NCBI GenBank assembly: GCA_040755995.1
Contig: JBFMAF010000028.1
Location: forward strand, 64,001 to 128,000
Reading direction: 5' to 3'
Length of the DNA: 64,000 nt
Origin: Acidobacteriota bacterium
GTDB lineage: Bacteria; Acidobacteriota; CAIWXX01
The position numbers and the translations under genes are program-made. Positions 38,898-64,000 of the stretch are shown here, piece after piece (the first letter of the stretch is position 1; every line of letters begins with the position of its first letter). The notes under the pieces are model-generated. The model did not search any database. It saw nothing but the letters and a program-made list of their open reading frames with translations, and was not told the origin of the DNA.

Positions 38898-38950
38898 TGC
38901 ACTGCTTCCTCACCCACCACGGCCCGGCCTGTCATGGGTCGCCATCACGG

Positions 38951-40651: not shown

Positions 40652-40662
40652 CGGAGCTGCGC

Positions 40663-41538: not shown

Positions 41539-41577
41539 TCTGCCTCCAGATGGGCATCCTGCTCCCCACCAGCCTAT

Positions 41578-44908: not shown

Positions 44909-44910
44909 CG

Positions 44911-45780
44911 TCAACTCCCTGTCAGATGCTTCTTGACAAACCCCGCGGCGCATTCTTGGAGGTATTTCAGCGCCTCTTTGCCCTTGCGCCGCTCGAAGTT
45001 CTCGCTAGGTGTGAACTGCTCCGCGGCATCGGCGAACTGCTTGATGACCTCATCCGTTTCGTCCAGCGATGGCGAGACCACAGGCCGTTTTCCTAGTGGC
45101 GCAAGGTAGCGATCCACGACCAGTAGAGGTTCGCCGACCCAGCGGCTCTGGTGCTCATGTATCCTGAGACCCTTGGGGTTACCAGCCCCCAGACGGGCGA
45201 GCGAGTCAAGAAACGCATAGGCCACGGCTGTGAACTCCTCGTCGGTGACGCTCAGACAGTGGTTGTAGACGGGGTACAGCAGCCCTGGCTCATTGTACTG
45301 CCGCTTGAACGGTATCGGGTCATCACCCTTTTCCTTGCTGATCATCGAGGGGTGCATGGCGCGCTGTTTCTCGACAGGGTCCATCTCCTGCACCGCTACG
45401 CCCCCGCCGTGAACAAGCCTTCCGACGAGCGTCTTCTTGCCGGGCTGGAGACCACCGAAGACCGCGCAAATCGGACATTCCAGGTCTGCACACGTATTCG
45501 GGATCCCGCAGTTCAATTTGTCACCCAGCAGTTTCCCATTCTTGACGGGCGCCCAAATGAGGCTCCGCCGCTCCACGCCACGGCGCTTCGTCGGGGAGAG
45601 ATAGCACTTATCTGGCTTGTCCTTCCCGAGCTTAACGGTTTCAACGAGGTTCACATTGATCTGAACCTGGTCTCCGAAATACAGCTCCTGGGCACCCTCC
45701 AAAATCGCATATATATCGAAGTGCCAACGGTCCGAATCCTTGACGATGCCTGTGGTGACGTCTTTCTTTTCTGAGGCCAT
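44911..45780 (-). CDS. cas7: Cas7-family backbone subunit with Cys cluster (Csc2/Cas7d-like), divergent
   Basis: KRRGVERR, C..C..CPICAVFG, RLGAG motifs; position between the large subunit and cas5. Confidence 0.72.
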   Translation of the reverse strand: MASEKKDVTTGIVKDSDRWHFDIYAILEGAQELYFGDQVQINVNLVETVKLGKDKPDKCYLSPTKRRGVERRSLIWAPVKNGKLLGDKLNCGIPNTCADLECPICAVFGGLQPGKKTLVGRLVHGGGVAVQEMDPVEKQRAMHPSMISKEKGDDPIPFKRQYNEPGLLYPVYNHCLSVTDEEFTAVAYAFLDSLARLGAGNPKGLRIHEHQSRWVGEPLLVVDRYLAPLGKRPVVSPSLDETDEVIKQFADAAEQFTPSENFERRKGKEALKYLQECAAGFVKKHLTGS

Positions 45781-45782
45781 CT

Positions 45783-46256
45783 CTACTCTCCCTTCTCCTT
45801 GACATAGTACTCGGGGTATTTTGCCGCCAGACTGAGTCTGATCTCAGTGGCTACATCCTTCTGTTCTTTGTCGCTCTTGTAGACGGATCCGAACAGAGAC
45901 GCGTAGACATTGCGGAGGTCATCGAAATACGCACGCAGGAAAGGAGTGCCTTGCTCGGTCATGCCTTGACGCTCTGTGATGTTCACTCCTTCAAGACCTG
46001 CCAGGAGTTTCTGCGCCTCGTCGAAACAGAAGTAGTTGTCTGGGTTGCGGTAAATCGTGGCCATCTCTCCAGATAGATTGTGGGTCGCACGATAGATGAA
46101 TTGGTATGGGTCGGTGACCTCTTCTATGAGCTTGGTCACCTCCCGCTTCGTGTTCTTCCCGGCCTTCTCCGCCTCGTTCTGCACTTGGCGACAGAAGGCG
46201 TCGAGCAGGCCTGTTAGCCCAGCCACGTGACGGAACAGAGTCGCTCTCTCTGCCAT
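45783..46256 (-). CDS. Putative in-frame internally translated small subunit (Cas11-like), 157 aa
   Basis: AAGGAGGTGAAT-ATG inside the large-subunit ORF, in frame; product MAERATLFRHVAGLTG... looks alpha-helical. Confidence 0.65.
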   Translation of the reverse strand: MAERATLFRHVAGLTGLLDAFCRQVQNEAEKAGKNTKREVTKLIEEVTDPYQFIYRATHNLSGEMATIYRNPDNYFCFDEAQKLLAGLEGVNITERQGMTEQGTPFLRAYFDDLRNVYASLFGSVYKSDKEQKDVATEIRLSLAAKYPEYYVKEKGE

Positions 46257-48044
46257 ATTCACCTCCTTGAGAAGATCGCAGTGCGACTGCCTCAGTTCTT
46301 CGAGCAAGCGCAGCTCAGCGCGACTTCGCATTGTCAGGCGCCGGGGCTCGGACTCATCGGCGATGAGCAGCGCATACGTAGCCTTGATTACCTGTTCCTT
46401 TTGCACGAGCCTTACGGCTTCGAATGCGGCGTGATTTGGCCGTTGACGACCCGATTTCGCATCGTATTGAGTCAACCGCAGGTCAAAGATCTCTTGAAGA
46501 TAGCTCAGCCAGACCATCCATCGAACCGGCATCTGTTGCTCGTCACCACCGATGAGCGAGGCGCAGCAGTTGCCCAACACGTCGCGCGGGAGAGTTGTGC
46601 CGACTTTGAACAGCGCATACTGAAGCAGGCCCATTGGATCAGCAACCGGTACCCAGCGAGATCGGCCTGCCTTCTGGATTTGGACAGCCTCTGTGCATTT
46701 CATCAGGAGGTACGGACCTGCAGCTAGGTTTAGCTCGCCTAGTGTCATCATGCGGAGATATCGGCTAGACTCCTGCTCATCTGCAGATGCATGGAGCGCC
46801 AAACGCACGACAACGCTCCCCTGGCGGAACTTGACCGGGCATATCATCGCCACCGACGCGCACGTGCAGCACACACGAGGTTCGTCTTGAGACTTGCCGG
46901 ATTGTAGCCGCTGTGACGAGGCTCCAAAGATAATTCGGTTTGCTTTCACGAAATCCTTGCCTGGGAGCGGATTTCCACACGCGTAGCAGACATCCGACTG
47001 CGCGTCGCCGGGTCGACAGGGTGTCACCTCGGCGGTATTGATTCTAATCGGGCATATGGGCCTGTAGCCGGCCGGTGCCTCAAGAAGGTCTGGGATCATC
47101 TTCGCCAGCTTGTCTGTGCCGACCGTTCCGTAGGAGAACTGCGTCCGCGCCAGGGAATTGAAACGCGACGCAAGCAGTCGTAGCCTTCTTAGTGCATCAG
47201 CAGGAATCTCCTTGCCCAAGTCGCGTACGGCCTTCTCATAGTCACGGCGATTGTTCTTCAGGGCACTCGTGCGCTCCTTGGTGACGTCGCCGAGTTCTTT
47301 GTCCAACTCGGACAGCCGCCTGCTGTCGCCCTTCTGCTCGGCCTTGTGCCGCTGAGCCGAGAGAGCCAAGTAGCGTTTCCTGGCTGCCCTGTGGTTGTTT
47401 GAACCGTAGAGGATGCGGTCTTCCAGTGTGGCGAGATAAAGAGCTGCCTGAACCTCCGCCGTATCTCGCGTTACAGCCGGGAACCGTGCCGCGCCAAAAC
47501 CCCGATCCGTCAGCTTCACCGAGTTCAGCAACAGCACAAACGTCTTCAGCAGCTCTTGACGCGAGAAGGCCCTGGACACGAAGTCCGGCCAGGCCGTGTC
47601 CAGGGACGAGTCTGCCGCGCGCGGCACGAAAGCCAGGATAGCTGCATCGTGTTGAGAGAGCGCCACGATCTTCCGTGTTGTGGCGAGATAGCCCAGAAAT
47701 CGATGGATCAATGTGTCGTAAGCGATGCGCGTCTGCATCTCCTGAGGGAGGACCGAGCGGTACCACCTCACAAGGTTACCGATCTCCTGCCCTCCCAGGG
47801 AAATCCTGTCATCCCTGACCGTGACAGTCTGCGAGGCGGTGTCTGTAGGAGCGGCGCGATTCATGCGACGTATTAGAGGGAGGGCGTCCAGGGATGCGAG
47901 CAGATGCCTCAGCTCAGCGACCAAGTGTGCCGATCTCGCCCATCCAACGAGCGAATCGAAGTCACCATCGGGGTGTCCAGCCGCGAAGTAGGCGGCACAG
48001 ATCGCAAGCTTCTGGTGGTCCGTTAATACAGTCATTTCATCCAT
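45783..48044 (-). CDS. Cascade large subunit (Cas8/Cas10d-like, unclassified), about 753 aa
   Basis: First gene of the effector module; CYACG...CCTC zinc-finger pair; no HD or GGDD motif seen; GGGGAG RBS before ATG 48044. Confidence 0.65.
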   Translation of the reverse strand: MDEMTVLTDHQKLAICAAYFAAGHPDGDFDSLVGWARSAHLVAELRHLLASLDALPLIRRMNRAAPTDTASQTVTVRDDRISLGGQEIGNLVRWYRSVLPQEMQTRIAYDTLIHRFLGYLATTRKIVALSQHDAAILAFVPRAADSSLDTAWPDFVSRAFSRQELLKTFVLLLNSVKLTDRGFGAARFPAVTRDTAEVQAALYLATLEDRILYGSNNHRAARKRYLALSAQRHKAEQKGDSRRLSELDKELGDVTKERTSALKNNRRDYEKAVRDLGKEIPADALRRLRLLASRFNSLARTQFSYGTVGTDKLAKMIPDLLEAPAGYRPICPIRINTAEVTPCRPGDAQSDVCYACGNPLPGKDFVKANRIIFGASSQRLQSGKSQDEPRVCCTCASVAMICPVKFRQGSVVVRLALHASADEQESSRYLRMMTLGELNLAAGPYLLMKCTEAVQIQKAGRSRWVPVADPMGLLQYALFKVGTTLPRDVLGNCCASLIGGDEQQMPVRWMVWLSYLQEIFDLRLTQYDAKSGRQRPNHAAFEAVRLVQKEQVIKATYALLIADESEPRRLTMRSRAELRLLEELRQSHCDLLKEVNMAERATLFRHVAGLTGLLDAFCRQVQNEAEKAGKNTKREVTKLIEEVTDPYQFIYRATHNLSGEMATIYRNPDNYFCFDEAQKLLAGLEGVNITERQGMTEQGTPFLRAYFDDLRNVYASLFGSVYKSDKEQKDVATEIRLSLAAKYPEYYVKEKGE

Positions 48045-48059
48045 GTGCTCCCCAAGCGG

Positions 48060-48092
48060 ATTGTAAAAGACCCATGTTGCATCCGGCGCAAC
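48060..48092 (-). promoter_or_regulatory. Putative cas-operon promoter and operator
   Basis: GTTGC-N7-GCAAC inverted repeat (48076-48092) upstream of a minus-strand TACAAT (48060-48065). Confidence 0.45.
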
Positions 48093-48096
48093 GGAA

Positions 48097-49107
48097 TCAC
48101 GCGTCCCTCGACCCTCCGTTTCCGTACGTCTTCGCCATCGCCCGGGCCGTCTCCAACATGCGGGCGCGGAGCTCCGGCGGGTGCAGCACTTCGACCTCGG
48201 GGCCGAAGCCGAGGAGCCACGCGATGAAGTCGGGTGCCAGGGGGACCTGCACGTGGAGCAGCGCCGCTCCACCGGGCAGGTCTTCGACGCGCTGCGTCGC
48301 GTGACGCTGTTGCTCCTTGATCAGCGGCACCAGGCGTGCAGCGAACTTGACCGTGACATCGACGGGCTCGCCGTCGAATAGCTCCCAGGCGCGAGAGAGA
48401 TGCGCATCCACCGAGAAGCCCGGCGGCGGAACAAACGTCCGGTCCAGCTCAGAGACACGCTTGAACCGGATGAGCTTGAACGTCAGCGCGCGTTCGCAGT
48501 CCGATGGGATCGCAGCTGCGTACCACGCATGGCGCCTGAAGAACAGTCCCAACGGCGCCAGCACGTACTTCCGAGCTTTCTTCTCCCCGAGCGCCTGATA
48601 GTACGCCTCCACGTACCGAGCATCGTAGACTGCTCGCTCCAAACGCCTGAAGACTTCCCTGACAGCCTTGTAGTCGCTCTGGCTGCTCACGCGCAATTGC
48701 ACGCGGTCCTTGGCGCGTCGTGCGACCTTGGTGACCTCCGGGCTCGCCAGCGATTCGATCTTGTGCATTGCAGCCTTCAGGGGCTCCGCCAATGGCGTTC
48801 CTGCATTGAGAGCAGGCGCGGAAGCCGCAGTGTAAAGGCTCAGCAATTCCTCCACCGTGAAGCTGACCGGGAGCGCGGTTGCGCTCATCATTTTCCAGCC
48901 GTAGCGCCCGTTCACAACCGGGAAACCGGCCTCGCAGAGTGACCTCAGGTTTCGCCAGATGGTCGATCGTTGCACGCGGAACTCCTCCGCCAGCTCCGAG
49001 AGCCTCCAACTCCGGTGCCCGCACAGCATCCGCGCGAGAGCGAGAAGCCGGGCAAAACCACGCCGACTATCTCTCTCTACGGCTGTTCTACCACTTGCTC
49101 GTCCCAA
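48097..49107 (-). CDS. HTH-WYL-WCX transcriptional regulator
   Basis: ELAEEFRVQRSTIWRNLRSL HTH; PLGLFFRRHAWY...TFKLIRF WYL; WLLGFGPEVEVLHPPELR WCX. Start uncertain. Confidence 0.92.
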   Translation of the reverse strand: MGRASGRTAVERDSRRGFARLLALARMLCGHRSWRLSELAEEFRVQRSTIWRNLRSLCEAGFPVVNGRYGWKMMSATALPVSFTVEELLSLYTAASAPALNAGTPLAEPLKAAMHKIESLASPEVTKVARRAKDRVQLRVSSQSDYKAVREVFRRLERAVYDARYVEAYYQALGEKKARKYVLAPLGLFFRRHAWYAAAIPSDCERALTFKLIRFKRVSELDRTFVPPPGFSVDAHLSRAWELFDGEPVDVTVKFAARLVPLIKEQQRHATQRVEDLPGGAALLHVQVPLAPDFIAWLLGFGPEVEVLHPPELRARMLETARAMAKTYGNGGSRDA

Positions 49108-51580: not shown

Positions 51581-52546
51581 ATGAGCCTCTACAAGAGCCT
51601 CTATTTCATGTCGCTGGTCGGCTTCATGGCCGGTCTCTTCTCCTGGGCGCTGACCTTCATCCTTTCCGCCGTCATCCCCTACCAGGACAGGGTATGGGTC
51701 GCAGATCTCATATCGGCCGCACTCTTGGGAGGATTCATCGGCGGGCTCACCGTCGGCTACTCCGACCACTGGTCCGGCAACCGTGTCCTGGCCAGGTGGG
51801 TTATCACGGGCACGCTGATTGGACTCCTGGCGGGCGGCCTGGCCGGTGTCATCCAGATCCCGATCACGGAGCGCCTGGCGCTCCAGGCGCCCATCCTCAC
51901 GCGCCTCATCGCGTGGATGCTGGCAGGATCGCTCATCGGTCTGGGGCTGGGCCTGCGCTGGGTGGCTGTGAATCCGCTGCGCGCCGCGCACGCATTCGCA
52001 GGCGGCCTGGTGGGCGGCGCGGTCGGAGGCTACCTGTTTGCCGCGCTGGGCGCCCGCATCCCCGATTTGTCTCAGGCGCTCGGCTTCGTCTTGACCGGTG
52101 TAGGCATCTGCTTCGGCGTCACACTCGCTCCGATCCTCGTCCGCGACGGCCTCCTCCAGTTCATCAGCAGCGGGGACGCGCGGGCGCAGAGCAAGTTCGG
52201 GCGCTCGCGGAAAGAATGGGAGCTGCAGGACGGCGATTCCTACATGATCGGCAGCCAGTCCATCGATTCCTCGGCGACGCGATACCGGCCGGAGATCGAG
52301 ATCTTCGTGCCGGACGCAGCCATCGCCCCCCGCCACGCGACGCTCTTCGGCCGGGGCGGCCGGTTCTACCTGGCGCGGCACCCCGAAGCAGCGGGCCAGG
52401 CCGGCATCGCCCGCTACGTGTTGAAGGTGCGAGGCAAGACGGTGACCGCGAGCCAGGAGCTGTACCACTCCGACGATATCCTGATCGGCCGCACGGCACT
52501 TCGTTTCGTGGCCCGGAGCAAGACCCGGCAGACGAGAGAAGCATGA
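51581..52546 (+). CDS. Multi-pass membrane protein with C-terminal FHA-like domain
   Basis: About 6 Gly-rich TM helices, then YMIGS...DAAIAPRHA...LYHSDDILIGRTALRF. Confidence 0.75.
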   Translation: MSLYKSLYFMSLVGFMAGLFSWALTFILSAVIPYQDRVWVADLISAALLGGFIGGLTVGYSDHWSGNRVLARWVITGTLIGLLAGGLAGVIQIPITERLALQAPILTRLIAWMLAGSLIGLGLGLRWVAVNPLRAAHAFAGGLVGGAVGGYLFAALGARIPDLSQALGFVLTGVGICFGVTLAPILVRDGLLQFISSGDARAQSKFGRSRKEWELQDGDSYMIGSQSIDSSATRYRPEIEIFVPDAAIAPRHATLFGRGGRFYLARHPEAAGQAGIARYVLKVRGKTVTASQELYHSDDILIGRTALRFVARSKTRQTREA

Positions 52547-54066
52547 TGATCTCGGATTTCGGATTTCGAGTTTCGGATTTTCGGACCGCGCCGTCTGACA
52601 TCCGAGACTCCCGGCCCGAGCTTCCCAGTCGCGCATCGAATCGCGCGGAGATCTGCCTGCTGACTGCGGTCGCGCTTCTCTCGGGATCCCTGTTGCGCGC
52701 GGAGACGCGCCTGGAGTTCGCCGACCATGTGAGGATGGTAAGCTGCGAGCCGGCCTCCAGAGTGCCATGTTTCCGGCTCAAGGCGAGCCTCGTAGACGCT
52801 CAGGGGACGCCCGTGGCCGCGGAGGTGCCCGCCGGCAGCGACGTGGTCCAGTACCTGACCGTTCGTTTCAACGGGCAGGAGTATGCTCCGTTCTATGCGA
52901 CGACCGGGAGTGGTGAGGGAACCGGCGAAGTCCGCCGGCGTATGGCGCTCATTCTCATGGACGTGAGCGGGAGCATGAGGGAGGTCTTGCCGGGGGGACA
53001 GACCAGGTTCGCAGCTGCAAGATCCGCGGCCGCCGAGTTCCTCCGCAACTTCGAGAGCGGTGTCGACCGGGTCGCCGTCGTGCCGTTCGGGAGCCGCAAC
53101 GTGATATCGACGATCCGATCTGCCCGCTTCGCGACAACGTCGGATGAAGCGCTGCGGCAGATCCAATCGCTTCCGGACCCGCTGCCGACGAGCAACACGG
53201 CGTTGTATTCGGCGGTCGCCACGGGGATCGACGTTCTCATCGAACAGGGGCGCGTCCCGTCGAGCTCAACCGAGGCCGTTCTCGTGGTAATGACCGACGG
53301 CAAGAATTTCGTGCGGCAGGGCGATGACGACCCCGGGCTCCTGGAGGGACCGGCCGGCCTGCAGCAGGTCGCCGAGAAGGTGCGGGCCATGGGCATCCAG
53401 GTGCTGGCCATCGGCCTCGGAGACCACCTCACGATCGACCAAGCAGCAATGCGCCAGATCAGTACGAAACTCTATATGGTGCAGGATATCGACGCCTTGA
53501 AGCATGCCTTCTTCGTGGCCCGCGGACTGTTCATCAACCGCATACAGGCCACCGTCGCCTCTCCGTGGGAGGACCGGGCATCGCTCGCCGGCAAGTCTCT
53601 CCGAATCCAGCTCGTGATGCGCCTGCCCGGCGGGCAGCAGATCGAGACACCGGAGACCGTCTGGTCTGCGCCGCAGATAGGGCTTCCGATCTACGAGGGG
53701 AACTGCGACTCGGCCGAGATGAAAGCGTTCCTCGACGTCCACAAGGCGTCGTCCGCCGCTGAGTGGTTGCCGCTGGTGAGGCCGATCCTGGTCTTCCTTG
53801 CGCTGGGTACCATCCTGCTGATCCTCTGGTTCTGGATCCCGCGGCTCGTCTGGGCCGACCAGTATGTCGGGGATCTGCGCGCGATTCACGGAGGAGCCCG
53901 GTGGCAGGGAGAGGGTGCTGGTTCGCGCCAGGAGCGGATGCCGGGGCGTCCGGCGCCTCCGGGATTCGACAAGGCCGGGGGGGCTCGGCCGCCGCTTAAG
54001 CGAGACCCTGGAGATCTGACGATCAGAGGAAGGATCGGGCAGATCAAAGACGATAGACGAGACTAA
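52543..54066 (+). CDS. Membrane-anchored VWA-domain protein
   Basis: MIDAS DVSGS, NTALYSA, VMTDG; C-terminal TM helix and Pro/Arg tail; ATGA-coupled to the upstream gene. Start uncertain. Confidence 0.85.
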   Translation: MMISDFGFRVSDFRTAPSDIRDSRPELPSRASNRAEICLLTAVALLSGSLLRAETRLEFADHVRMVSCEPASRVPCFRLKASLVDAQGTPVAAEVPAGSDVVQYLTVRFNGQEYAPFYATTGSGEGTGEVRRRMALILMDVSGSMREVLPGGQTRFAAARSAAAEFLRNFESGVDRVAVVPFGSRNVISTIRSARFATTSDEALRQIQSLPDPLPTSNTALYSAVATGIDVLIEQGRVPSSSTEAVLVVMTDGKNFVRQGDDDPGLLEGPAGLQQVAEKVRAMGIQVLAIGLGDHLTIDQAAMRQISTKLYMVQDIDALKHAFFVARGLFINRIQATVASPWEDRASLAGKSLRIQLVMRLPGGQQIETPETVWSAPQIGLPIYEGNCDSAEMKAFLDVHKASSAAEWLPLVRPILVFLALGTILLILWFWIPRLVWADQYVGDLRAIHGGARWQGEGAGSRQERMPGRPAPPGFDKAGGARPPLKRDPGDLTIRGRIGQIKDDRRD

Positions 54067-54105
54067 CGCAGCTAGCCGGCTCCGCCGGCGGGAGGTTGGA
54101 AGAAT

Positions 54106-54609
54106 ATGCCGCTAGTGAAAGTGATTCGCAAAGGGGTGACCCCCGCGATCCGCAAGGTTCCCACGTCTACGACCGCGGCCGTCATGCCGATGACTCTGGA
54201 CCGCGTCGGCAAGGAGGTCGCTTCCGAGAACGAGGAAGCCACCAAGGTCGAGTCGGCTCAGGACGCGTTCGAGAAGTTCAAGCCGGCGCTGGATTTCAAG
54301 GCGCGAGCGGGCGAGGAGGAGACGGAGTTCCGAGCTGAGTTTCGTTTTCGGAGCATCAAGGATTTCGATCCTGAGAACCTGCAGAAGCGCCAGGAGATCA
54401 AGAACGCGGACGGCACGGTGGACGTACTCCGCAACGACATCGCGGACCTCAAGAACGGGATCGATCTGCTGTACCGTCTCAAGGACCGCTGGAAGCTTCC
54501 CGCAGTGCGCCGGGCATGGGGCGCGGAGAACCAGCGCAAGGAGATTATCAACGCCCTGGGGCGGCTTCGTGGCGAGCTCGAAAAGGTCGCCGGGAGGGGA
54601 GGTAAGTGA
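54106..54609 (+). CDS. tssB: Contractile sheath small subunit, Bacteroidota-type TssB-like
   Basis: DAFEKFKPAL...EFRFRSIKDFDPENL; directly upstream of and coupled to the large sheath subunit. Confidence 0.75.
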   Translation: MPLVKVIRKGVTPAIRKVPTSTTAAVMPMTLDRVGKEVASENEEATKVESAQDAFEKFKPALDFKARAGEEETEFRAEFRFRSIKDFDPENLQKRQEIKNADGTVDVLRNDIADLKNGIDLLYRLKDRWKLPAVRRAWGAENQRKEIINALGRLRGELEKVAGRGGK

Positions 54610-55955
54610 TGCCGGAAGAGGTTGCAACCAAGACCAGGACGACGGGGGAGATTCTTGGAGAGAGTGCAGCACGCGAGCTGCTGCAGGACATCTTCGCCGA
54701 CCTGCACCCGGGCCTGATCGACGAGACGCGTGACATCGCCAGCATCTTCACGCCTCAGTCGGCCGGCGAATTCCTCACGCAGCTCACGAACCTGGAGCAT
54801 CTCCTCAGCGACACCGACACCTATGAAGACACGGTGAAGAAGATTCAGTCTCAGATCGACAAGGGCGAGAAGACCCGGGATGAGCTGTTGGCGCAGATTT
54901 TCCAGAAGATCCGGCCGCTGGAGAAGAGCTATCGCCAGCTGATGATGTTCTTCGAGAACTCGAAGGTGCCGGACGGAAAGGTGCGCAAGCCGGTCGAGTG
55001 CTACGTGCTCAACGCCGACACCAAGGCGATGACCGACGTGTTCGGAATGAACATTGCCGCCCTCGAGAACTTCGTGCGCAAGCGGAACGACAACTTCAAT
55101 TTCCGCGACGACATCTGCAATCTGGTCATCCCCGGCTACGTGCCGCAGACGGTGCGCGAGAAGCTCGAAGACCTCGCCAACGCCTGGGGCATGCTCCTGA
55201 TCACCGACATCGACGACGAGAAGTCGTTCAAGAATGTCGAGCGGAACTTCCTGCCCGGCGGCAAGTATGAGTTCATGAAGCGTCCCGAAGACCGAGCGGC
55301 CGCGGATGTGGTCACGATGGGATACCTGCAGCTCAGGTCGGCGCACTGGTTCGAGAAGCAGGTCGAGGGTGGTGATGACCTCTACGGCCCGCCATCGGTG
55401 GTGTTCGCCGGGGCGCTCGCTCGCGCCGACGATCAGCAGGGGCTGGCCCAGGGGCCGATAGGGTCGCGTTTCGGGCAGATCTCCGGCGCGGAGAATTGCC
55501 GCGTCGAGCCGCTCATCGGCGAGATGGAGCACCTCAGTATGGAGCGCCAGCTCATCCCGATCATCCGCGACGCCGACAATCATCTATGCTTCTTCGGATG
55601 CCGGACGCAGGCCGAAGATCCATACGGCGTCCTGAAGTTCTTCACCTCCTACAGGATCCTGCGATTCCTGGAACGCTGCTGCAGGCATTATCTGCTGCAG
55701 GTCGCCGGACAGGTGCTCACACGGGAGTTCATGGAGGAGAACATCGAGAAGCCGCTGCGGCGCCTGCTCAATGAACAGCTCGAGCAGGGCACTATCAGCG
55801 GGTTCGAGCTGACCGTCGACAAGGATTCGCAGAAGCGCATGCAGGGCATCTGTGACATCACGCTGACCGTCATGCCAACCGGGCCCGCCGAGACGTTCGT
55901 CCTGAAGATCGACGTACCCGAGTTTTCCAAGGGAGGCGACGCGGCAAAAAAGTAG
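54609..55955 (+). CDS. tssC: Contractile sheath large subunit, DUF5458/T6SS-iii TssC-like
   Basis: RPLEKSYRQLMMFFEN, NLVIPGY, LLITD, PPSVVFAG, and a phage-sheath-like C-terminus. Confidence 0.8.
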   Translation: MPEEVATKTRTTGEILGESAARELLQDIFADLHPGLIDETRDIASIFTPQSAGEFLTQLTNLEHLLSDTDTYEDTVKKIQSQIDKGEKTRDELLAQIFQKIRPLEKSYRQLMMFFENSKVPDGKVRKPVECYVLNADTKAMTDVFGMNIAALENFVRKRNDNFNFRDDICNLVIPGYVPQTVREKLEDLANAWGMLLITDIDDEKSFKNVERNFLPGGKYEFMKRPEDRAAADVVTMGYLQLRSAHWFEKQVEGGDDLYGPPSVVFAGALARADDQQGLAQGPIGSRFGQISGAENCRVEPLIGEMEHLSMERQLIPIIRDADNHLCFFGCRTQAEDPYGVLKFFTSYRILRFLERCCRHYLLQVAGQVLTREFMEENIEKPLRRLLNEQLEQGTISGFELTVDKDSQKRMQGICDITLTVMPTGPAETFVLKIDVPEFSKGGDAAKK

Positions 55956-55972
55956 CCCAGCCGCGGACGGGA

Positions 55973-56491
55973 ATGACCAAGCCATCGCACGGACCAATTG
56001 ACGTCCGAATGACACGCTCGATCGGGAAAGAGCGCCGGCAGCCGTCTGCCCGCGAGGAGGCCGACGACGGGATCGGAGATCGCAAGCCGGAGCCGTTCCG
56101 GGCATCGCTGGGCGTGAAGGTAGCGGGCGCGGTCGGGCAGAAGTTCGAGTTTCGGGCGAGGCCTGACCGTGCCGGTGAACTGCTGCCAGACGGTGCGGCA
56201 GGGGACAGCGCCGAGGCGGCAGCCGAAGAGAGGCGCCACCAGGAGCGATTCGACCCGAAGCTGGGCGTCAAGGCGGCCGGCGCGGTGGGGCAGAAGTTCC
56301 AGTTCGCGGCGCGACCGACGGGGCCCGGAGAGCTGCTGCCCGCTGCAGAGGAGGTCAAACCCGAGCCAGCGATGCGAGCGACGACAGAGAATTCGACATC
56401 CGCCGAAGCTGCGCCGGCGCCCGCGCCCACACGCGGGGTATTCGGATCGATTCTGGGAGGCCTGGGCCGCCTGTTCCGCCGGCGACGCTAG
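55973..56491 (+). CDS. Hypothetical protein with internal duplication and amphipathic C-terminal helix
   Basis: Two copies of LGVKxAGAVGQKFxFxARPxxxGELLP spaced 51 aa apart; ends GVFGSILGGLGRLFRRRR. Confidence 0.65.
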   Translation: MTKPSHGPIDVRMTRSIGKERRQPSAREEADDGIGDRKPEPFRASLGVKVAGAVGQKFEFRARPDRAGELLPDGAAGDSAEAAAEERRHQERFDPKLGVKAAGAVGQKFQFAARPTGPGELLPAAEEVKPEPAMRATTENSTSAEAAPAPAPTRGVFGSILGGLGRLFRRRR

Positions 56492-56537
56492 AGGCCTCTA
56501 GGGTCAAGTCAACAGGAATCATTCAAGGAGGTTTAAC

Positions 56538-56999
56538 ATGGCCGCTCCGTACAGATCCACAGTGACGATCGATGGGGACAAGTTCGACGCCGTCTCCACG
56601 GGCGTTGCGTTCAACACACTCAAGGACAGGGCCGGCATGCCGGAGATGGGGAGTCTCACGACGTCCATCAAGGTCTTTGTCGATTTCCACGACGATCAGA
56701 ACATGCCGCATGCAACGCTGAAGAAGCTCTTCGATCTTGCGAACGTCGTCACGCGCGACAAGATCAAGGACATCAAGCTCGAGTTCTGGAAGGACGACGC
56801 CAAGCAGGACGCCCTGTGCAGCTATGCCTTCAAGGGCTGGATCAGCAAGTTCGAGACGTGCAACCCGATGCCGAGCAGTGCCGTGGGCTCCGGCGCCACC
56901 GATCTGTCGCCGTATTCCACGATCAACCACCTGCTCATCCTGGAGCTCGAACCGGTCCTCAACCAACAGAACTTCAAAGAGATCACGATGAGCAATTAG
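56538..56999 (+). CDS. tssD: Tube protein (Hcp/TssD-like)
   Basis: 153 aa, strong AAGGAGG RBS; YRSTVTIDGDKFD...DRAGMP and KDIKLEF...YAFKGWISKF resemble tail-tube/TssD patterns; lies between the sheath and gp25-like genes. Confidence 0.7.
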   Translation: MAAPYRSTVTIDGDKFDAVSTGVAFNTLKDRAGMPEMGSLTTSIKVFVDFHDDQNMPHATLKKLFDLANVVTRDKIKDIKLEFWKDDAKQDALCSYAFKGWISKFETCNPMPSSAVGSGATDLSPYSTINHLLILELEPVLNQQNFKEITMSN

Positions 57000-57097
57000 G
57001 TAGGGGCGAGCGGCGCTCGCCCTCGGCGCGAGTGCCGCGCGCGCTGCGGCGAGCAGCACCTCGTCCCTACATGGACGTGCAGGGGCGAGCGGCGCTC
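57000..57097. repeat. GTAG-type REP-like hairpin after the tube gene
   Basis: GTAGGGGCGAGCGGCGCTCGCC...GGCGAGCAGCACCTCGTCCCTAC inverted pair plus a second partial unit at 57079. Confidence 0.65.
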
Positions 57098-57186
57098 ATC
57101 CCGCATCGTGCAGCGCACCCTCCCAATCGATATCTTGACCTCACGCGAGTCCCCGCCCCCGGGGGATTGGACTGTGCAGTAGTCGT

Positions 57187-57546
57187 ATGCCGTTTGTCGA
57201 ATTCCCTCTCCGGCTCACTGGCGGATTCCTTCGCCGCACGGGAGAACCGGAGGCTGTCCTGGCGCTCATCGAGATCATGGGAAGAACGCCTCACGGCTCG
57301 TGGCGCGGCTCTGCGCATTTCGGTCTTCGGGACCTGCTGACTGACCCGAAGAGCCGGCAGGAGTTCGGATCGGTGGCGATGCAGCAGATCAACCTTGCAC
57401 TCGATGACATCGGCATCAAGGACTACAGGGTACAGAGCGTGCAGCGCGAACAGGCGACACGCGAGGGCTCGGAATCATACGCGATCACCCTCGCTTCGAC
57501 CCAAGAGAAAGACCGCCTGTACGCCACCAGGGTTGTGCGGAGCTGA
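57187..57546 (+). CDS. tssE: gp25/TssE-like baseplate protein
   Basis: 119 aa; LIEIMGRTPHGSW....FG pattern typical of GPW/gp25; gene order fits. Confidence 0.65.
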   Translation: MPFVEFPLRLTGGFLRRTGEPEAVLALIEIMGRTPHGSWRGSAHFGLRDLLTDPKSRQEFGSVAMQQINLALDDIGIKDYRVQSVQREQATREGSESYAITLASTQEKDRLYATRVVRS

Positions 57547-57595
57547 ATCGTGTTGCCGCAGGTACTCACGAGCAAGTGTCGGGTTGCGTGGAGCA

Positions 57596-57679
57596 GACGC
57601 GGGGACGCGGGGACGCGGATACGCGGAGAACCGCTCGGGGGACATTCACCGCGTCTCCCTGCCACCGCGTCTCCGTGTC
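57596..57679. repeat. Octamer tandem repeats (GACGCGGG-type) followed by inverted copies
   Basis: Same family as 22628/25338/27241, in both orientations. Confidence 0.6.
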
Positions 57680-57701
57680 TGGTTTCGCTGGCAGGTGTCT
57701 G

Positions 57702-59399
57702 ATGGCCTACGGTAAGACGACAGCGGCGGAAATCGACAAGAAACTGCGGGATGATTTCCGAAAACGACTACAGGACTATGGTGTATCTGCCGAGGCGACC
57801 GATCCCATGCTCGCCGTGCTCTTCCGCACGTTCGCGACGCAGCTCGATGGCCTGTACTCCGAGACGGAGCGGATTCGACTTGCGCTGCTCGACGAGCTGG
57901 TGGCGGGGCTGGGCATCGAGGGACGTGCGGCGCGGGCCGCTCAGACTGTGGTCCGCTTTCACAGCGCCTCCGGCACGCAATTCGTGGACGCGGGCACCGA
58001 GCTGATCGGCGAGGCGCAGTCCGGCGAGAGACTCACATTCGCCACCGACGCGGCCATAGCCGTGTCGCCGGCTTCGATCGCGCTGGCCGCCGTGTACCAG
58101 AACGGATCTCTGCAGCTTCTGTCCGCTGTGGAGATGTCCGAGGACATCCAGAACGCACGCCCGTCGCTGGATCCGGTCCGTGTCAATCTTGGGACGAATC
58201 CGGCGATCTTCCTTGCGATCGATGGTGTACCGGCGAATCACCTCGGCCAGCACGGCTTTTTCGTTCAGGTGAGCCCCTACGCCAGAGGGGTACAGCAGGC
58301 GCTGCGGCGTGAGACCTGGTGCCTTGCCGGATACGAGGGTGACTTCGGCGCGACTGGCATCCTGCGCCCTCACCGTGCCAGCGCCGGCGTCCAGATGCTG
58401 CGATGGCTGCTGGCCGATGCCGCGCGCGAAGAGAGCGAGGGCTCGGATACCGGGGCTCCGAAGCTCCCGGATGGCTTCTACGCCGGGCGGCTCTTCATTC
58501 TCCCCGTCGTCCCACCCGGCCGCCGCTTCCTCTGCCGCGCTCCACGGGGCATGGAGCCCGCGATGGGCACGATTTTTGGGCGGAACGCTCCGGCCGTCCT
58601 CGATCGCAAGCGCGCCTGGCTGCGCATCTCCATGCCGCGCGACGTGCCGGACCTTGCGACGGCGCTCACGGCCGTCTCGCTGCATGCGGTGAGCGCGTCC
58701 AACATCGAGTGCCTGAACCAGACGATCGCGTTCGAGAAGCATGGTACCAACATCCCCGTGAGCGTCGAGGCGGGGACGTCCAAGTACCTGGTGGCGCCTC
58801 TGTCGATTCTCGGCGAAGGCGGAGGGAGCTACCTGCCGGAGCTCGAACCCTCGTTCGACCCCGGCGCCGGTCGATACTCCATTCGGAACGGCCGCATACA
58901 CCTGCAGCCGGCCCAGCATCAGGATGGCCGCGTCGATGCATACGCCAATCTGCGCCTCTGGGTCACCAATGGCCCCGTAGGCAACGGGGTCGGTCCTGGC
59001 AAAGTCCAATCCTTCCTCAGAAGCGGCTCCTCCCCGGCACTCCGTCTCACCAATCCGACATCAGCCGCCGGAGGCACCGACGCCGAGACGTTCGCGCAGG
59101 CGCAGGCCCGGTTCGCCAGCGTGCTGCTTTCGAGGGAACGCATCGTGACTCGGGCCGACGTGACGGCGGCCGTACGCGCCTTCGACCGGAGAGTGCAGCA
59201 GGTGGATATCTCGTCCGGTTTGAAGCGAACAGAGCACGGGCTGGCTCGACTGCAGCGAGTCAAGGTCGGCCTCGCCCAGTCCGATTTCACTGATCCGGAG
59301 GCCGAATCGCGAATTCTGCGCGAGGAGATCGAGAGCTACTTGCAGCAGCGTTTCTTCTACGACATGGCGATCGAAGTCGAAACGGAGTGGGCAGTCTGA
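57702..59399 (+). CDS. tssF: Baseplate wedge subunit TssF/gpJ-like
   Basis: N-terminal DPMLAVLF...AAQTVV...AGTE; C-terminal TNG...AAGGTDAE...LLSRERIVTRADV. Confidence 0.78.
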   Translation: MAYGKTTAAEIDKKLRDDFRKRLQDYGVSAEATDPMLAVLFRTFATQLDGLYSETERIRLALLDELVAGLGIEGRAARAAQTVVRFHSASGTQFVDAGTELIGEAQSGERLTFATDAAIAVSPASIALAAVYQNGSLQLLSAVEMSEDIQNARPSLDPVRVNLGTNPAIFLAIDGVPANHLGQHGFFVQVSPYARGVQQALRRETWCLAGYEGDFGATGILRPHRASAGVQMLRWLLADAAREESEGSDTGAPKLPDGFYAGRLFILPVVPPGRRFLCRAPRGMEPAMGTIFGRNAPAVLDRKRAWLRISMPRDVPDLATALTAVSLHAVSASNIECLNQTIAFEKHGTNIPVSVEAGTSKYLVAPLSILGEGGGSYLPELEPSFDPGAGRYSIRNGRIHLQPAQHQDGRVDAYANLRLWVTNGPVGNGVGPGKVQSFLRSGSSPALRLTNPTSAAGGTDAETFAQAQARFASVLLSRERIVTRADVTAAVRAFDRRVQQVDISSGLKRTEHGLARLQRVKVGLAQSDFTDPEAESRILREEIESYLQQRFFYDMAIEVETEWAV

Positions 59400-59400
59400 G

Positions 59401-59437
59401 GTGCCGGTTGTCAGTTGCCAGTTGTCGGTTGTCAGTT
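59401..59437. repeat. Heptamer tandem repeat (GTTGTCA-type)
   Basis: GTTGTCA GTTGCCA GTTGTCG GTTGTCA; same family as 27157. Confidence 0.7.
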
Positions 59438-59511
59438 AAGGCCGGGCGGGCGGAACGCACGGAGCGTTGGCGCAGTGCGGGGGTCAACGTCTGCGACAGG
59501 GCACGGCTCCA

Positions 59512-60435
59512 ATGACGCCCACCGTACACCCGCGCATGCCGGATTTCTCGCATTCTCATCCGGGCTTTCATCACACGGTCGACTCAGCGCTCGAGGTGCT
59601 GTCGAGCCTCAGTGTGCTGCCGTCGCGCGTGACGCTGCGCATGGCTGGGCGCGGCTGGCCGACTTGCCGCGTGGTCCACCAGAGCCCGCCGCCCGGCGCG
59701 GAGCTCACCCCCGACCAGACGATCACTCTTCACGTCGCGGGCGTCGGCTTTTTCCAGTCGCTCCCGGTGGGCATGTGGGACAGAGGCGGCGAGGTCGAGA
59801 TGGGCACGCAGGAGATTCTGGAAATCGTGGACGACCCGCTCCAGAAGGCCGCGCATTGGCTGCGCGAAGGCGCCCGCCTCTTCGACGTGCGCCCCGACAA
59901 CCCGCAGGCCTGCGCCCGCTGGATCTCGCTCTTCGGCCTCTCGGCCGAAGGCTGGCCCGCCGAGTGCTGGTACAACCTGGCGTTGTTCCTGCCAAATCTC
60001 CAGCGGCTCGCGGGCAGGGAGATCGGCATCCGCTTCGCACTTCAGCTCGTTCTCGGTCTGCCCCTCTCCGAGATCCGCGGGAGACGCTCGTTCAGCTACC
60101 TTCAGGAAGCTGACCTCTCGCTGCTGGCGCAGTCATCCAGCCGGCTCGGGGTCGACCTCATCGTGGGTGACTGCATCGAGGACGTGGCGCGCCTCGTGCT
60201 GGTGATCGGGCCCGTGCCGCTCGCCACCTACTACGAATACCAGGAAGCCGACAGGCAAAGAGTCCTCGACTCGGTGCTTCAGCTATGCGTGACGTGCCAT
60301 CAGAAGTATCGAGTCTCATGGCTGGTTCAAGATCCCGGACGCCCGCCACGACTCGGCTTCGAAGAACAGAATGCCCGCCTGGGCATCAACTCGCATCTGG
60401 GCAAGAACGCATCCGCACTCGTTGCCCTCGGCTAG
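59512..60435 (+). CDS. tssG: Baseplate subunit TssG-like with N-terminal PASTA-like domain
   Basis: Follows tssF; GFFQSLPVG, SRLGVDLIVG, LVIGPV and terminal RLGINSHLG motifs; N-terminal MPDF...A...L...RVVHQSPPPGAELTPDQTITLHV. Confidence 0.7.
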   Translation: MTPTVHPRMPDFSHSHPGFHHTVDSALEVLSSLSVLPSRVTLRMAGRGWPTCRVVHQSPPPGAELTPDQTITLHVAGVGFFQSLPVGMWDRGGEVEMGTQEILEIVDDPLQKAAHWLREGARLFDVRPDNPQACARWISLFGLSAEGWPAECWYNLALFLPNLQRLAGREIGIRFALQLVLGLPLSEIRGRRSFSYLQEADLSLLAQSSSRLGVDLIVGDCIEDVARLVLVIGPVPLATYYEYQEADRQRVLDSVLQLCVTCHQKYRVSWLVQDPGRPPRLGFEEQNARLGINSHLGKNASALVALG

Positions 60436-60459
60436 AACGTGACAGAATGGAAGTGACCC

Positions 60460-62190
60460 ATGAGAGACGATGACATCAAGCTCGGCTCGGTGAACTTCGA
60501 ACACGGGATGCTGCTCACGCCGGAGCACTTCTTGCGAATGGAGCAGTACATCGACTCGTCGGTGATCTGGATGCTGCGCCACATGTCCTCGGCGTTCGGT
60601 CTGATCGGCGGCGGTCCGAGACTGCCCGAGAGCGAACGAGGCGCCGTGCACCACGATCCGATCGTCGTGATCGACGCCGACGATACCGGTGTCAACGTAA
60701 CGGTCACGCAGTGCCGGGCGCTGACACCCGCGGGCTGCATCGTCGACATCGACCCGGCGCATCCCATCCGGCGCCGGTTCGGCGGGAAGGATCTCGAGGG
60801 GGTTACCGAGTCGCCCATCTACGTGGTATGCACGCCGCACGAGAAGCAGCCGGTGCAGGGGGTCGCCGATGAATTCAACCCGCAGATGCAGACCGAGCGG
60901 CGCCCGGTGTACTCGATAGCCCTTCAGGTCCATGCCGACTGGACGGCTTACAGCGCCGCCGTCGCGCGGCTGCGCCGCCCGCCTCACGGCGCAGGCTACG
61001 AGAAGGACCCCGAGTTCATACCCGCCTGCACGTCGATGGTCAACCACAGCCAGCTAGCAGCAGGATGGCGGCAGGTCGTCGAGGCGGTGACCCATCTGGC
61101 AAGCCGCTACACCGAGCTCCACCGCGCCATGATGGAGTTCGTGACGCTGTTCAAGGAGCGCGGCATAGAGACCGAGCTCGACATGGAGACCATGAACTTC
61201 ACCGGCCGCATGGTGGTCGCGCTGCAGGACTGCATCTATGGCGTCCTCGATCCCGTGCAGATGCCCCAGAGCTTCTTCGGCGCCCTGCGCCGCTTCTTTC
61301 ACAGCGCCGCGGTCTACCTGGACCTCAGCCCGTCCGTACGGCAGTACTTCGAGCTGCTGAAGGAGAGCGGCGAGACCGAGTTCATCGCGCTGCTCGAACA
61401 GCAGCGCAAGGTGCTCTCGCTCACCCCCCGCTGGAACGTGCACGACGACCTCGGTGTCGAGCTGCGATCGGCGCTGCAGTCGATCTCATCGTTGCAACGA
61501 CTGGAGGGCGCGCTCGAAGGCAAGTACCTCGACTTCCACATCAACCGCGCGCTCGACGCGATGAACTTCGTGTTCGACCGCGGAGGGAAGGTCCTGTACA
61601 AGCTCGCCGCGAAGCCGTCGCGCGTGCAGGGGTTTGCCGACGAGCTCACCGTTACCTTTGCCAACCTCCGTCTGGAGGGACGCGACAAATACAGGCTGGT
61701 GCTGGTCGGCGAGCAGAACGCCACCTTCGAGAAGGGGACGCGGATCACCGTCGAGATCCGCATAAACGAGGGGTCCGGATTCAAGCGGAAACCGCTGATC
61801 ATGCCGTGCGACGCGCGAATGAGCGGACAGTGCAACTTCGAATTCGACTTCGAGGCGCCCGACGTCCCCACCATCACCGACCTGCGTGTGGCGCTGCCGG
61901 GCCATCACCCGTTTCGTACGGCACTGCTGTTCGTCCGGCAGCGGTTCTACGCCGGAGCCGGAGCCGAGCCGCCGGCACGGCACGTGCAGCCGCTGGAAGC
62001 GCCGCCATCGCCCAGGACCGAGCCGGTGCCGCGCCCGCAGCGTCCTGTGCCGCCGCAGCAGCCGGGCTTCGGCCCGCCCGAGCCCCCCGCCGAGCATCGC
62101 CCGCCGTGGGAGGCGCCCGATCGGGGCGGCCGGCGGCCGCAGGAACCCGAGCCGCCGCCACAGCCGCCTCGACGGCGAAGACTCGAATGA
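60460..62190 (+). CDS. tssK: TssK-like baseplate accessory protein with Pro-rich tail
   Basis: VNFEHGMLLTPEHF start motif, CRALTPAGCIVDI, EFIPAC. Confidence 0.7.
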   Translation: MRDDDIKLGSVNFEHGMLLTPEHFLRMEQYIDSSVIWMLRHMSSAFGLIGGGPRLPESERGAVHHDPIVVIDADDTGVNVTVTQCRALTPAGCIVDIDPAHPIRRRFGGKDLEGVTESPIYVVCTPHEKQPVQGVADEFNPQMQTERRPVYSIALQVHADWTAYSAAVARLRRPPHGAGYEKDPEFIPACTSMVNHSQLAAGWRQVVEAVTHLASRYTELHRAMMEFVTLFKERGIETELDMETMNFTGRMVVALQDCIYGVLDPVQMPQSFFGALRRFFHSAAVYLDLSPSVRQYFELLKESGETEFIALLEQQRKVLSLTPRWNVHDDLGVELRSALQSISSLQRLEGALEGKYLDFHINRALDAMNFVFDRGGKVLYKLAAKPSRVQGFADELTVTFANLRLEGRDKYRLVLVGEQNATFEKGTRITVEIRINEGSGFKRKPLIMPCDARMSGQCNFEFDFEAPDVPTITDLRVALPGHHPFRTALLFVRQRFYAGAGAEPPARHVQPLEAPPSPRTEPVPRPQRPVPPQQPGFGPPEPPAEHRPPWEAPDRGGRRPQEPEPPPQPPRRRRLE

Positions 62191-62243
62191 GGGTCGCCAG
62201 AACCATCCGCCTGATCGAAATCGCGAAGTGAAGGAGGACCGCA

Positions 62244-64000
62244 ATGGGCATTGATCTCGACAAGATCTCGAACGAGATGGAGGACGCGCTGGAACGGGCG
62301 CGGCTCCTGGCCGAACGGCGCAAGCAGGCGCAGATCACGCCGCTTCACATGCTGTACGTGCTGCTGGAACCCGACGGGCCGCTCGCGGGCCTGATGGAGA
62401 AGGCCGGCACGGCGTGCAGCACGCTGCTGGAAAACTTCGCCACCAAACTCAACAAGGAGGGCGGGCTGAAGCTCGAAGAGGGCAGGCGCCCGACGGCATC
62501 GCGGTCGTTGCGCGAGCTGATCGAGAAGTCATTCGAGAAAATGCACCAGCGCGGGGCGGAGATGGCGGAGCCCATCGACTTCCTGACGGCGGCGATCGAG
62601 TCCGGCGAGGATGATCTCAAGCAGGAGATGCGCACCGCAGGCGTCACGAAGAAGACGGTGGAGCAGGCGTCCGAGACTCGCGCCGCCACGAGGGAAACGC
62701 TCGGCGAGAAGAAGAGCGCCGCGCCTGCCGGCGGCTCGAAGGCCCTGGAACGTTTCGGGCGCGATTTGACGGCCGCGGCAGCCGCCGGCGACCTCATGCC
62801 GGTTATCGGCCGTGACAACGAGATCCGCCTCGTCATCCAGACGCTGCTCCGCAAGACCAAGAACAACCCGGTCCTCGTCGGAGACCCCGGCACAGGAAAG
62901 ACCGCCGTTGCCGAAGGTCTTGCTCAGCGCATCGCCGCAGGCGACGTGCCGGACTCGCTCAAGAAGTGCAAGGTCATGGCGCTCGACCTCACGTCCATGG
63001 TCGCGGGGGCGAAGTACCGTGGCGAGTTCGAGGAACGGATCAAGAGTGTGGTCGACGAGGTCAGAGCGAAGAAGGGCGAGATCATCCTGTTCCTGGACGA
63101 GATACACACGCTGGTGGGCGCCGGAGGCAGCGAGGGCGGGATGGACGCGGCCAACATCCTGAAGCCTGCGCTGGCACGCGGCGAGCTCCGCTGCGTCGGT
63201 GCCACTACTTACGACGAGTACCGCGAGCGCATCGAGAAGGACGGCGCGCTCGCGCGGCGCTTCGAGGTCGTGGTGGTGAAAGAGCCGACCGACGACATCA
63301 TGATGACGATGCTCCGGGGCATTCGCCCGCGCTACGAGACGTATCACGGCGTGCGACTGTCGGACGAATCGCTGCAGGCGTCCATCAAGCTCTCACGACG
63401 ATATCTGCGTACGCGCTTCCTGCCGGACAAGGCGATCGATATCATCGACGAGGCCACAGCGCGCATCAGGATGCAGAAGGAGAGCAAGCCGAACGAAGTG
63501 GATCAGATGGAGCGGCGGCTGATACAGAAGGAAGCTGAGCTGGCGAGTCTCGAAGGCGGGGCTGCTACTGCGGCTCAGAAGAAGGCGGTCGAGGCGCTGC
63601 GCGCCGAGATCGAGGAGCTTCGCCCGAAGGTCGAAGAGCTGGTCGGCCAGTGGAAGACTCAGAAGACCGCCTCGGACCAGCTCCGCGCCACCAAGCAGGC
63701 GATCGAGGAGCAGACGAAGCTCCTGGCGGCGGCCGAGACGCAGGGCAACGTGGCGAAGGCGGCCGAGATCCGCTATGGCTCGCTGAAGTACCTCGATCAG
63801 CAACGCGAAGATCTCGAGAAGCAGCTCTCGAAGATCGCCGCCGGAGGCGGGATGATCCCGGAGGAAGTGCGCGAGGAACACGTTGCGGAGGTGATAGCCG
63901 ATCGCACCGGCATCCCGATATCGAGAATGCTGGAGAGCGAGCGGGAGCGGTTGCTGAAGCTCGAAGAGCGCATCGGCGAACGGGTGTTCGGGCAGGACGG
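62244..64000 (+). CDS. ClpB/ClpV(TssH)-family AAA+ ATPase, 5' portion
   Basis: Not in the ORF track because it runs off the edge. [61 protein letters not shown]-domain AAEIRYG. Confidence 0.93.

Follow-up and report, generated by a model that had tools for sequence, protein, structure and literature searches.

How is a contractile tail of a type VI secretion system (T6SS) kept at the cell envelope in a genome where none of the membrane anchors known for such tails is found? This question is raised by positions 51581-64000 of a stretch of 64,000 nucleotides (the window; contig JBFMAF010000028.1, here C28) from an Acidobacteriota genome (G000; 7.7 Mb, 99.84% complete). A preliminary description, made from the sequence alone, had seen there a one-direction cluster running from an FHA-membrane protein to a Clp ATPase, with a sheath and a tube of T6SS-iii type in a host outside Bacteroidota, and these points stand. 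Eleven genes, all on the plus strand, form a single operon in the order claimed, encoding a six-transmembrane protein with an FHA domain (6-TM/FHA), a vWA protein with a transmembrane helix (vWA-TM), TssB, TssC, a low-complexity protein, Hcp, TssE, TssF, a PASTA-TssG, TssK and a ClpB-like ATPase. The answer favoured here, with a probability of about two in three overall, is a cell-anchored contractile injection system that is coupled to a ubiquitin-like protein (Ubl) and forms a subtype of its own; what the data show are gene content, linkage, folds, conserved catalytic residues and natural fusions. It is apparently an undescribed kind of contractile injection machine, and a literature search by title and abstract start, with subscription journals and bioRxiv supplements outside its reach, returned no description of it.

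Regarding the tail, several features that define a T6SS are present: a two-part TssB/TssC sheath, an Hcp tube, a TssE/F/G/K baseplate and a VgrG spike, the two-part sheath, TssK and a dedicated Clp ATPase being T6SS hallmarks. In related loci, the genes for Hcp, TssE, TssF, TssG and TssK follow tssC in all 65 loci with a full downstream flank, and those for 6-TM/FHA and vWA precede it in all 57 with a full upstream flank, a gene order far beyond chance. Family profiles built from these relatives match the TssB, D, E, F, G and K of Bacteroidota, with E-values that are generous because the target set held only 19 sequences: 1.6e-7 for Bacteroides TssB, 2e-4 for Bacteroidota gp25 with the TssE profile and 1.4e-16 for Bacteroides TssF. 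The tube protein is closest to Bacteroidales TssD (E 0.13; score 0.93; E 1.5e-6 in the same set), while TssC matches PF17541, the TssC family of T6SS-iii. The family match of TssK is weak and under the cut-off, and its identity is confirmed by a predicted model (predicted local distance difference test, pLDDT, 80), for which a solved TssK is the best match (Foldseek E 4.7e-11; Z 17.1, root mean square deviation 8.1, 359 residues aligned). The ATPase scores 966 bits with the ClpB model versus 734 bits with the TssH model, both under the cut-off, and is 45% identical to the other ClpB-like protein of the genome versus 30-36% to two Bacteroidota TssH. It forms a clade of its own with 11 locus-linked Clps and is classed as a locus-specific ClpB-like paralogue.

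T6SS-iii is described as restricted to Bacteroidetes in 10.1101/031039. Likewise, Bongiovanni et al. 2024 (PMC10781749) count 443 T6SS-iii in Bacteroidota and 0 in over 20,000 other genomes, always with some part of TssNQOPR, and do not settle where the membrane complex came from; the T6SS of an acidobacterial plasmid is assigned to subtype i4b in PMC9113992. The identity of the window's TssC is 19-22% with three Bacteroidota references and 12-17% with T6SS-i TssC, and its plasmid matches, all eight from Bacteroidota, reach 21.5-24.8%. A profile search returned 218 distant proteins, and the trees rest on the best 150 of them: one was computed from the near-full-length rows (91), then another from a hand-picked 48 with four T6SS-i outgroup sequences, picked out by a motif, over 369 columns, whose root is uncertain because the outgroup branch is very long (2.5). 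The window TssC lies in a separate clade (SH-like approximate likelihood ratio support, SH-aLRT, 98.8) and is not nested in the other clade (99.6), which holds the three annotated Bacteroidota references. Several deep lineages sit between the two, one with a member from Candidatus Eisenbacteria, and these clades suggest that more T6SS-iii-related subtypes exist outside Bacteroidota. The present system is thus placed as a distinct, mostly acidobacterial subtype within a wider T6SS-iii lineage, neither T6SS-i nor canonical T6SS-iii. P0265, on a deep branch, is the T6SS-iii-like TssC assigned to Candidatus Eisenbacteria, the only one of 30 distant TssC proteins for which cluster look-ups gave an organism.

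Among the best 80 of the 95 loci, 75 are titled as acidobacterial, two as Arcobacter, one as Methylomirabilota, one as Verrucomicrobia and one as an uncultured bacterium, with a TssC identity of 67-86%. The two Arcobacter loci (L028 and L040) are nearly identical in order to Bryobacteraceae loci and are possibly mislabelled bins. Two surveys of 201 genomes each, one across the phylum and a separate one at order level around the cultured Edaphobacter modestus (L090), show a patchy system, carried by five genomes of the former (G000 included) and 18 of the latter. This patchiness would also fit an ordinary T6SS-iii acquired from Bacteroidota, the phylum of all annotated plasmid matches of TssC, in which TssNOPQR diverged or were lost and where the ubiquitin-like operon described below is an unrelated passenger, for example against phages; Bil-type bacterial Ubl systems are antiviral, and a vWA domain occurs in TssR too. 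The low identity of TssC and its position outside the Bacteroidota clade speak against such an origin, as does the third-position GC content of the operon (0.74-0.86), which resembles that of dnaK (0.86).

The anchors themselves were searched by family. TssJ, TssL, TssM and TssA (PF12790, PF09850, PF14331 and PF06812) have no match in G000, with an E. coli control positive for all four, and TssN (PF17555) is absent from G000 and from all 201 genomes of the order sample, with a positive result in 3/3 control plasmids of Bacteroidota. A tblastn search for TssN, O, P, Q and R with one Bacteroides query set also gave no match at E 0.01, a weak test for such fast-diverging proteins. TssL occurs in 34 of the 201 order genomes, but only in 6/18 carriers of the present system and at other loci; a separate T6SS-i TssC is close to it in G304 and in the three carriers that were checked. 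It had been supposed that the locus is truncated. The Clp gene does pass the window end; however, the operon stops just 859 bases later, and no T6SS gene was recognised by eye among the open reading frames (ORFs) that follow. Because of this early end and of the lack of matches in a 99.8%-complete genome, the missing anchors are not due to truncation, and no canonical membrane complex was found in the genome. TssJLM, TssN and TssA, which the earlier description did not see, thus have no match in the genome either; for VgrG, also unseen there, two genes lie elsewhere in the genome. Likewise, a little-characterised T6SS lineage is borne out by the separate TssC clade and by the want of a canonical membrane complex in these searches, whereas the suggested membrane complex of its own is still inferred.

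In place of the known anchors, three conserved inner-membrane proteins accompany the tail: 6-TM/FHA, vWA-TM and a DUF1080-TM-FHA protein. The first has six hydrophobic segments and an FHA match under the cut-off (E 0.033), whose consensus is devoid of the Arg and Ser that bind phosphothreonine in canonical FHA domains, so that it looks phospho-independent. The second has a clear vWA domain (PF00092, E 9e-14) and two hydrophobic segments, and one natural FHA-vWA fusion (P0121) was found. The gene of the third stands behind the ATPase in 55/65 loci with a full downstream flank, and in G000 it faces a VgrG island at C28:205456-207711. This gene escaped the first reading, as did the split VgrG and an operon for an E1, a RING-like protein, a Ubl and an E2, all outside the window here.

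That operon emerged from clustering the neighbourhoods of 84 loci, of which 56 contain a family of 86-amino-acid Ubls. In G000, it is located on contig C32 in the order E1, TM-zinc finger (TM-RING), Ubl and E2. The Ubl, E2 and TM-zinc finger genes lie at most 10 kb upstream of tssC in 56 of the 57 loci with a full upstream flank, and E1 is present in 46 of the 57; of the 11 loci without E1, 10 are cut off within the operon by the edge of the locus, and only L035 shows none. Moreover, E1 and 6-TM/FHA are arranged head to head in 49 of the 51 loci holding both whole genes, with a median gap of 123 bp in which no common regulatory motif beyond promoter-like hexamers was seen. In the order sample, the Ubl marks exactly the same 18/201 genomes as TssC, with two of each in G372; no statistic is attached to this co-occurrence because the kin are not independent. 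That TssC and Ubl are never apart there argues against a passenger operon. In Bryobacteraceae-type loci (L024, L026-L029, L031, L035, L037, L040, L044 and L052), a conserved insert upstream of the 6-TM/FHA gene lies between the Ubl and T6SS operons, with what by eye are presumably a kinase-like gene, two DUF4384-like genes and genes for caspase-like/TPR exported proteins.

The proteins of this operon have the conserved residues of a conjugation cascade. The Ubl ends in glycine in 63/63 sequences, and its model (pLDDT 92) has ubiquitin as the first match, with YukD and TmoB among its feature neighbours. E1 has a GxGxxG motif and a cysteine, Cys204, in 55/55, whose role we assume from its position in ThiF/MoeB-type enzymes; E2 (UQ_con match, 1.5e-6) has an HPN...C motif with Cys106 in 58/58 and His95 in 57/58. 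Thus, both enzymes look catalytically intact from their sequences, with putative active cysteines. The TM-zinc finger protein has 16 conserved cysteines in tandem zinc fingers and a Prok-RING_2 match under the cut-off (E 0.025), and the best solved matches of its second finger are RING E3s, weak ones with E 0.002-0.01 (range to 0.1). A search for a JAB peptidase gave only two weak matches, on other contigs.

The target of such a cascade is suggested by natural fusions. Among 85 longer Ubl homologues, 53 are fused to 6-TM/FHA and 31 to E2. In the former, the terminal Asn-Gly is no longer seen past the last Ubl strand, and in seven inspected cases the final strands of the FHA domain now come after the Ubl, so that the Ubl sits against the FHA domain. 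In the latter, GG or NG is kept at the junction in 28/32 short ones. P0273, P0288 and their kin have the Ubl ahead of E2 with an internal Gly-Gly, so a peptidase would be needed to release the tag. A metagenome scan with a fusion as the query returned 59 loci, of which 57 were analysed after two marginal matches were dropped. The Ubl and 6-TM/FHA form one ORF in 17 of them, six of which reach tssC in the same T6SS operon, and E1 or E2 is found in 0/17 fused loci versus 35/40 other Ubl-bearing loci. With the Ubl joined to a product of the T6SS operon itself, and given the co-occurrence, the Bacteroidota origin with a passenger operon is largely refuted and seems very improbable.

Regarding the acceptor residue, Lys205 of 6-TM/FHA is kept in 67/68 sequences, and at this position the 53 fusions have Arg in 41 and Lys in 11, which fits an acceptor, mostly within one lineage. 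Lys286, beside the fusion junction, was rejected as a candidate for a conservation below 80%. However, invariant lysines are also present in TssK (K355, 63/63), TssG (70/70) and TssB, so the same machine could instead use the Ubl as a regulatory switch or to mark the baseplate, sheath, tube or cargo, with the FHA, vWA and DUF1080 membrane proteins alone making the dock. Tagging would then replace the control exerted by PpkA/Fha phosphorylation in T6SS-i, a pathway that has FHA and vWA domains as here; a ClpB-like rather than TssH-like ATPase, the phospho-independent look of the 6-TM FHA and the kinase-like genes (family 12) flanking only 28/84 loci agree with it. Against such a regulatory tag, the longer homologues show the Ubl fused only to 6-TM/FHA or E2, and the fused loci lack E1 and E2, which a diffusible tag for other substrates would still need, making this explanation unlikely.

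The coupled system is therefore weighed as a sequence of steps, in which conjugation, target, docking and firing are inferred. For Bacteroides fragilis, PMC10781749 describes TssN as a transmembrane bundle whose cytoplasmic domain is predicted to resemble ubiquitin. TssK co-purifies with this TssN, which serves as the dock of the baseplate in the authors' model, and TssR contains a vWA-like domain. The likeliest mechanism is thus that Ubl conjugation onto a membrane protein builds or licenses the dock; since the ingredients of TssN occur here as separate genes together with ligation enzymes, and these enzymes are missing from the fused loci, it is simplest to suppose that the cascade joins the Ubl to 6-TM/FHA. 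An inner-membrane platform would consist of the three conserved membrane proteins plus the TM-RING protein. E1 would activate the terminal glycine of the Ubl, and E2 and the RING protein would then, on a slight balance of probability, pass it to the cytoplasmic domain of 6-TM/FHA, with Lys205 as a candidate. It is possible, and suggested with reserve, that 6-TM/FHA, once tagged, does the work of TssN and brings in or licenses the TssK baseplate. Contraction of the sheath would shoot the Hcp-VgrG spike at cells nearby, and recycling of the sheath would fall to the ClpB-like ATPase. It is tentatively proposed that in this further T6SS subtype a eukaryote-like E1-E2-RING cascade makes the baseplate dock by covalent ligation of a ubiquitin-fold protein to a subunit in the inner membrane; TssN and the natural fusion would be hard-wired versions of the same product. 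For TssK residues 190-497 and the Ubl, a complex prediction scored 0.33, 0.25 and 0.10 (mark 0.32) and is used neither for nor against binding. If this proposal is true, bacterial ubiquitination would have a structural role in the assembly of a secretion machine, and the Ubl/6-TM/FHA fusion would be a natural bypass control for the conjugation model.

The spike is encoded apart from the tail operon, by two vgrG genes at G000:C28:201267 and C36:158077, one of which reaches the TIGR01646 cut-off. The C28 VgrG (524 amino acids) goes no further than its OB domain plus a short beta segment, and the next gene has gp5-type needle repeats (PF22178, E 1.3e-6, under the cut-off). All 19 complete VgrG matches in related loci end at the same place, with a crude needle motif next in 11/19, while the C36 VgrG has a C-terminal extension. 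After this second VgrG (L010:12068-14889 of C36), a peptidoglycan-binding protein is followed by a 711-amino-acid protein with a C39-like peptidase match and what is presumably a lysozyme-like motif; the latter is a candidate antibacterial cargo. Two paralogous genes of no known family follow the C28 VgrG and its needle gene (L008:13679-15351; G000:C28:203678-205350) and likewise stand in most VgrG islands of the relatives, a constancy that suggests adaptors or chaperones rather than immunity proteins.

Several results weigh against a cell-anchored, Ubl-coupled machine. No PAAR family match exists in G000, and no conserved lipoprotein, outer-membrane gene or channel was recognised in 20 extended flanks. 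Together with the unmatched TssJ, L, M, N and A and with VgrG and needle as separate genes, this would suit a tail that is anchored to the inner membrane only, or released, and that acts like an intracellular or extracellular contractile injection system. Such a tail is distinctly unlikely, considering that the two-part sheath, TssK and the dedicated Clp are T6SS hallmarks, that the nearest sheath and tube relatives are T6SS-iii proteins, and that the VgrG islands have candidate cargo with paired small genes. Regarding the coupling, the Ubl operon of G000 sits on another contig than the T6SS, neither of the two other sampled members of the host family has the system, and the FHA and RING family matches remain under their cut-offs. 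The TM-zinc finger is kept in 16/17 fused loci without E2, which argues that the TM-RING has a structural role too. In addition, the 17 fused loci are near-identical kin from one lineage on short contigs, only five of them with at least 8 kb upstream, which leaves room for E1 and E2 at other places of the same genomes, and a search of 401 genomes turned up no fused Ubl. Finally, sequence comparison detects no similarity between the Ubl and TssN's cytoplasmic domain (profile comparison probability 0.1%), so this link is by fold class and analogy only.

Compared with known machines, the Ubl-coupled system resembles T6SS-iii in its PF17541-type TssC, TssD-type tube, TssB/E/F/G/K, Clp ATPase and lack of TssJLM, and the envelope parts of both include a polytopic inner-membrane protein together with ubiquitin-like and vWA domains. 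It differs in a non-Bacteroidota host, a TssC that is about 20% identical and forms its own clade, the want of any match to TssN, O, P, Q or R, FHA proteins, a PASTA-TssG, a ClpB-like ATPase, a VgrG split from its needle, no PAAR found and a free Ubl, predicted to be conjugatable, with E1, E2 and RING. With T6SS-i, known from Proteobacteria and present as a separate system in Acidobacteriota, it has in common the tail and baseplate architecture and the TssK fold; unlike it, G000 has no TssJ, TssL, TssM or TssA match, and TssC is as distant as given above. T6SS-iv and extracellular contractile injection systems have a single-chain sheath, a tape measure, a tail terminator and no TssK, whereas here two proteins make up the sheath and TssK occurs (no family search was made for the tape measure or the terminator). 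The system combines a T6SS-iii-related tail with an envelope platform of another kind, and its carriers belong to a major phylum of soils and include the cultured E. modestus.

As for the conjugation genes, prokaryotic Ubl-E1-E2-RING operons with Prok-RING_2 were reportedly described by Burroughs, Iyer and Aravind in 2011, who may already list the acidobacterial operon. A ThiF-type E1, a UBC-type E2, a Cys-rich RING with transmembrane helices and a Gly-ended Ubl are common to both; unlike those operons, the present one is linked to the locus of a contractile injection system and contains no gene for a JAB peptidase, and no maturation is needed for its Ubl. The Bil and Bub ubiquitination systems (Chambers et al.), the former of which is said to act against phage and to use a deubiquitinase, have similar bacterial E1-E2-Ubl chemistry but are not part of a T6SS. 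EccD and YukD of type VII secretion likewise place a beta-grasp domain at a secretion membrane complex, though not of a T6SS, and neither is known to be conjugated. A bacterial E1-E2-RING operon would hence be given a concrete candidate substrate and a purpose outside phage defence. Passages of PMC11354881 and PMC7159879 hold nothing on a link between T6SS and such an operon.

Table 1. Genes of the operon at positions 51581-64000 of the window.
Feature	Position	Strand	Length (amino acids)	Remarks
6-TM inner-membrane protein, C-terminal degenerate FHA	51581..52546	+	321	candidate Ubl acceptor and baseplate dock
vWA-TM	52543..54066	+		signal-like segment, vWA domain that is exported, single TM helix and short tail in the cytoplasm; uncertain start codon
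TssB, small sheath subunit	54106..54609	+	167	PF05591 E 0.0035, under cut-off
TssC, large sheath subunit, T6SS-iii type	54606..55955	+	449	PF17541 E 8.5e-23
Low-complexity protein	55973..56491	+	172	two internal repeats, basic-hydrophobic C-terminal tail; optional accessory
Hcp/TssD-like tube protein	56538..56999	+	153	
TssE/gp25-like baseplate protein	57187..57546	+	119	position kept in 65/65
TssF, baseplate wedge protein	57702..59399	+		TIGR02243 E 2.8e-8, under cut-off
TssG with N-terminal PASTA-like domain	59512..60435	+		start 59512 or 59536
TssK, baseplate connector	60460..62190	+	576	Pro-rich C-terminal tail
ClpB-like AAA+ ATPase	62244..64000	+	871	ends at G000:C28:128859; presumed sheath recycler

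Among the smaller features of the operon, TssB has a median identity of 73% in the relatives, most of which have two Hcp copies in tandem. The slot of the low-complexity protein is occupied by an ORF in 47/75 loci, with a GSAAR-like motif common to 41/45 examined ORFs, and the window protein itself is matched by tblastn in only 3/80 loci; an amphipathic-helix test did not separate its tail from those of TssB and TssF. TssG matches PF06996 (E 1.3e-6), and its PASTA-like domain (PF03793, E 1.9e-4, under the cut-off) has weak matches to the PASTA structures of StkP and PknB. Throughout the family, this domain, of a kind that normally lies outside the cytoplasm, is joined to TssG, a baseplate protein of the cytoplasm. 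The TssK head was considered as a new domain and dropped: it resembles generic beta-sandwiches (Z 6-9), yet full-length TssK aligns across it too. Sequence searches of solved structures with TssC and with the Ubl were uninformative.

Elsewhere in the window, the HspR noted in the preliminary description was found again, as an HspR-like gene after dnaK-dnaJ (16846-17310). On the minus strand at 34600-49107, a CRISPR repeat array in a low-GC stretch is followed by cas genes and a WYL regulator; by eye, these are presumably cas2, a cas4/cas1-like, a cas3-like and cas5/cas7-like genes, and a large subunit that looks unusual.

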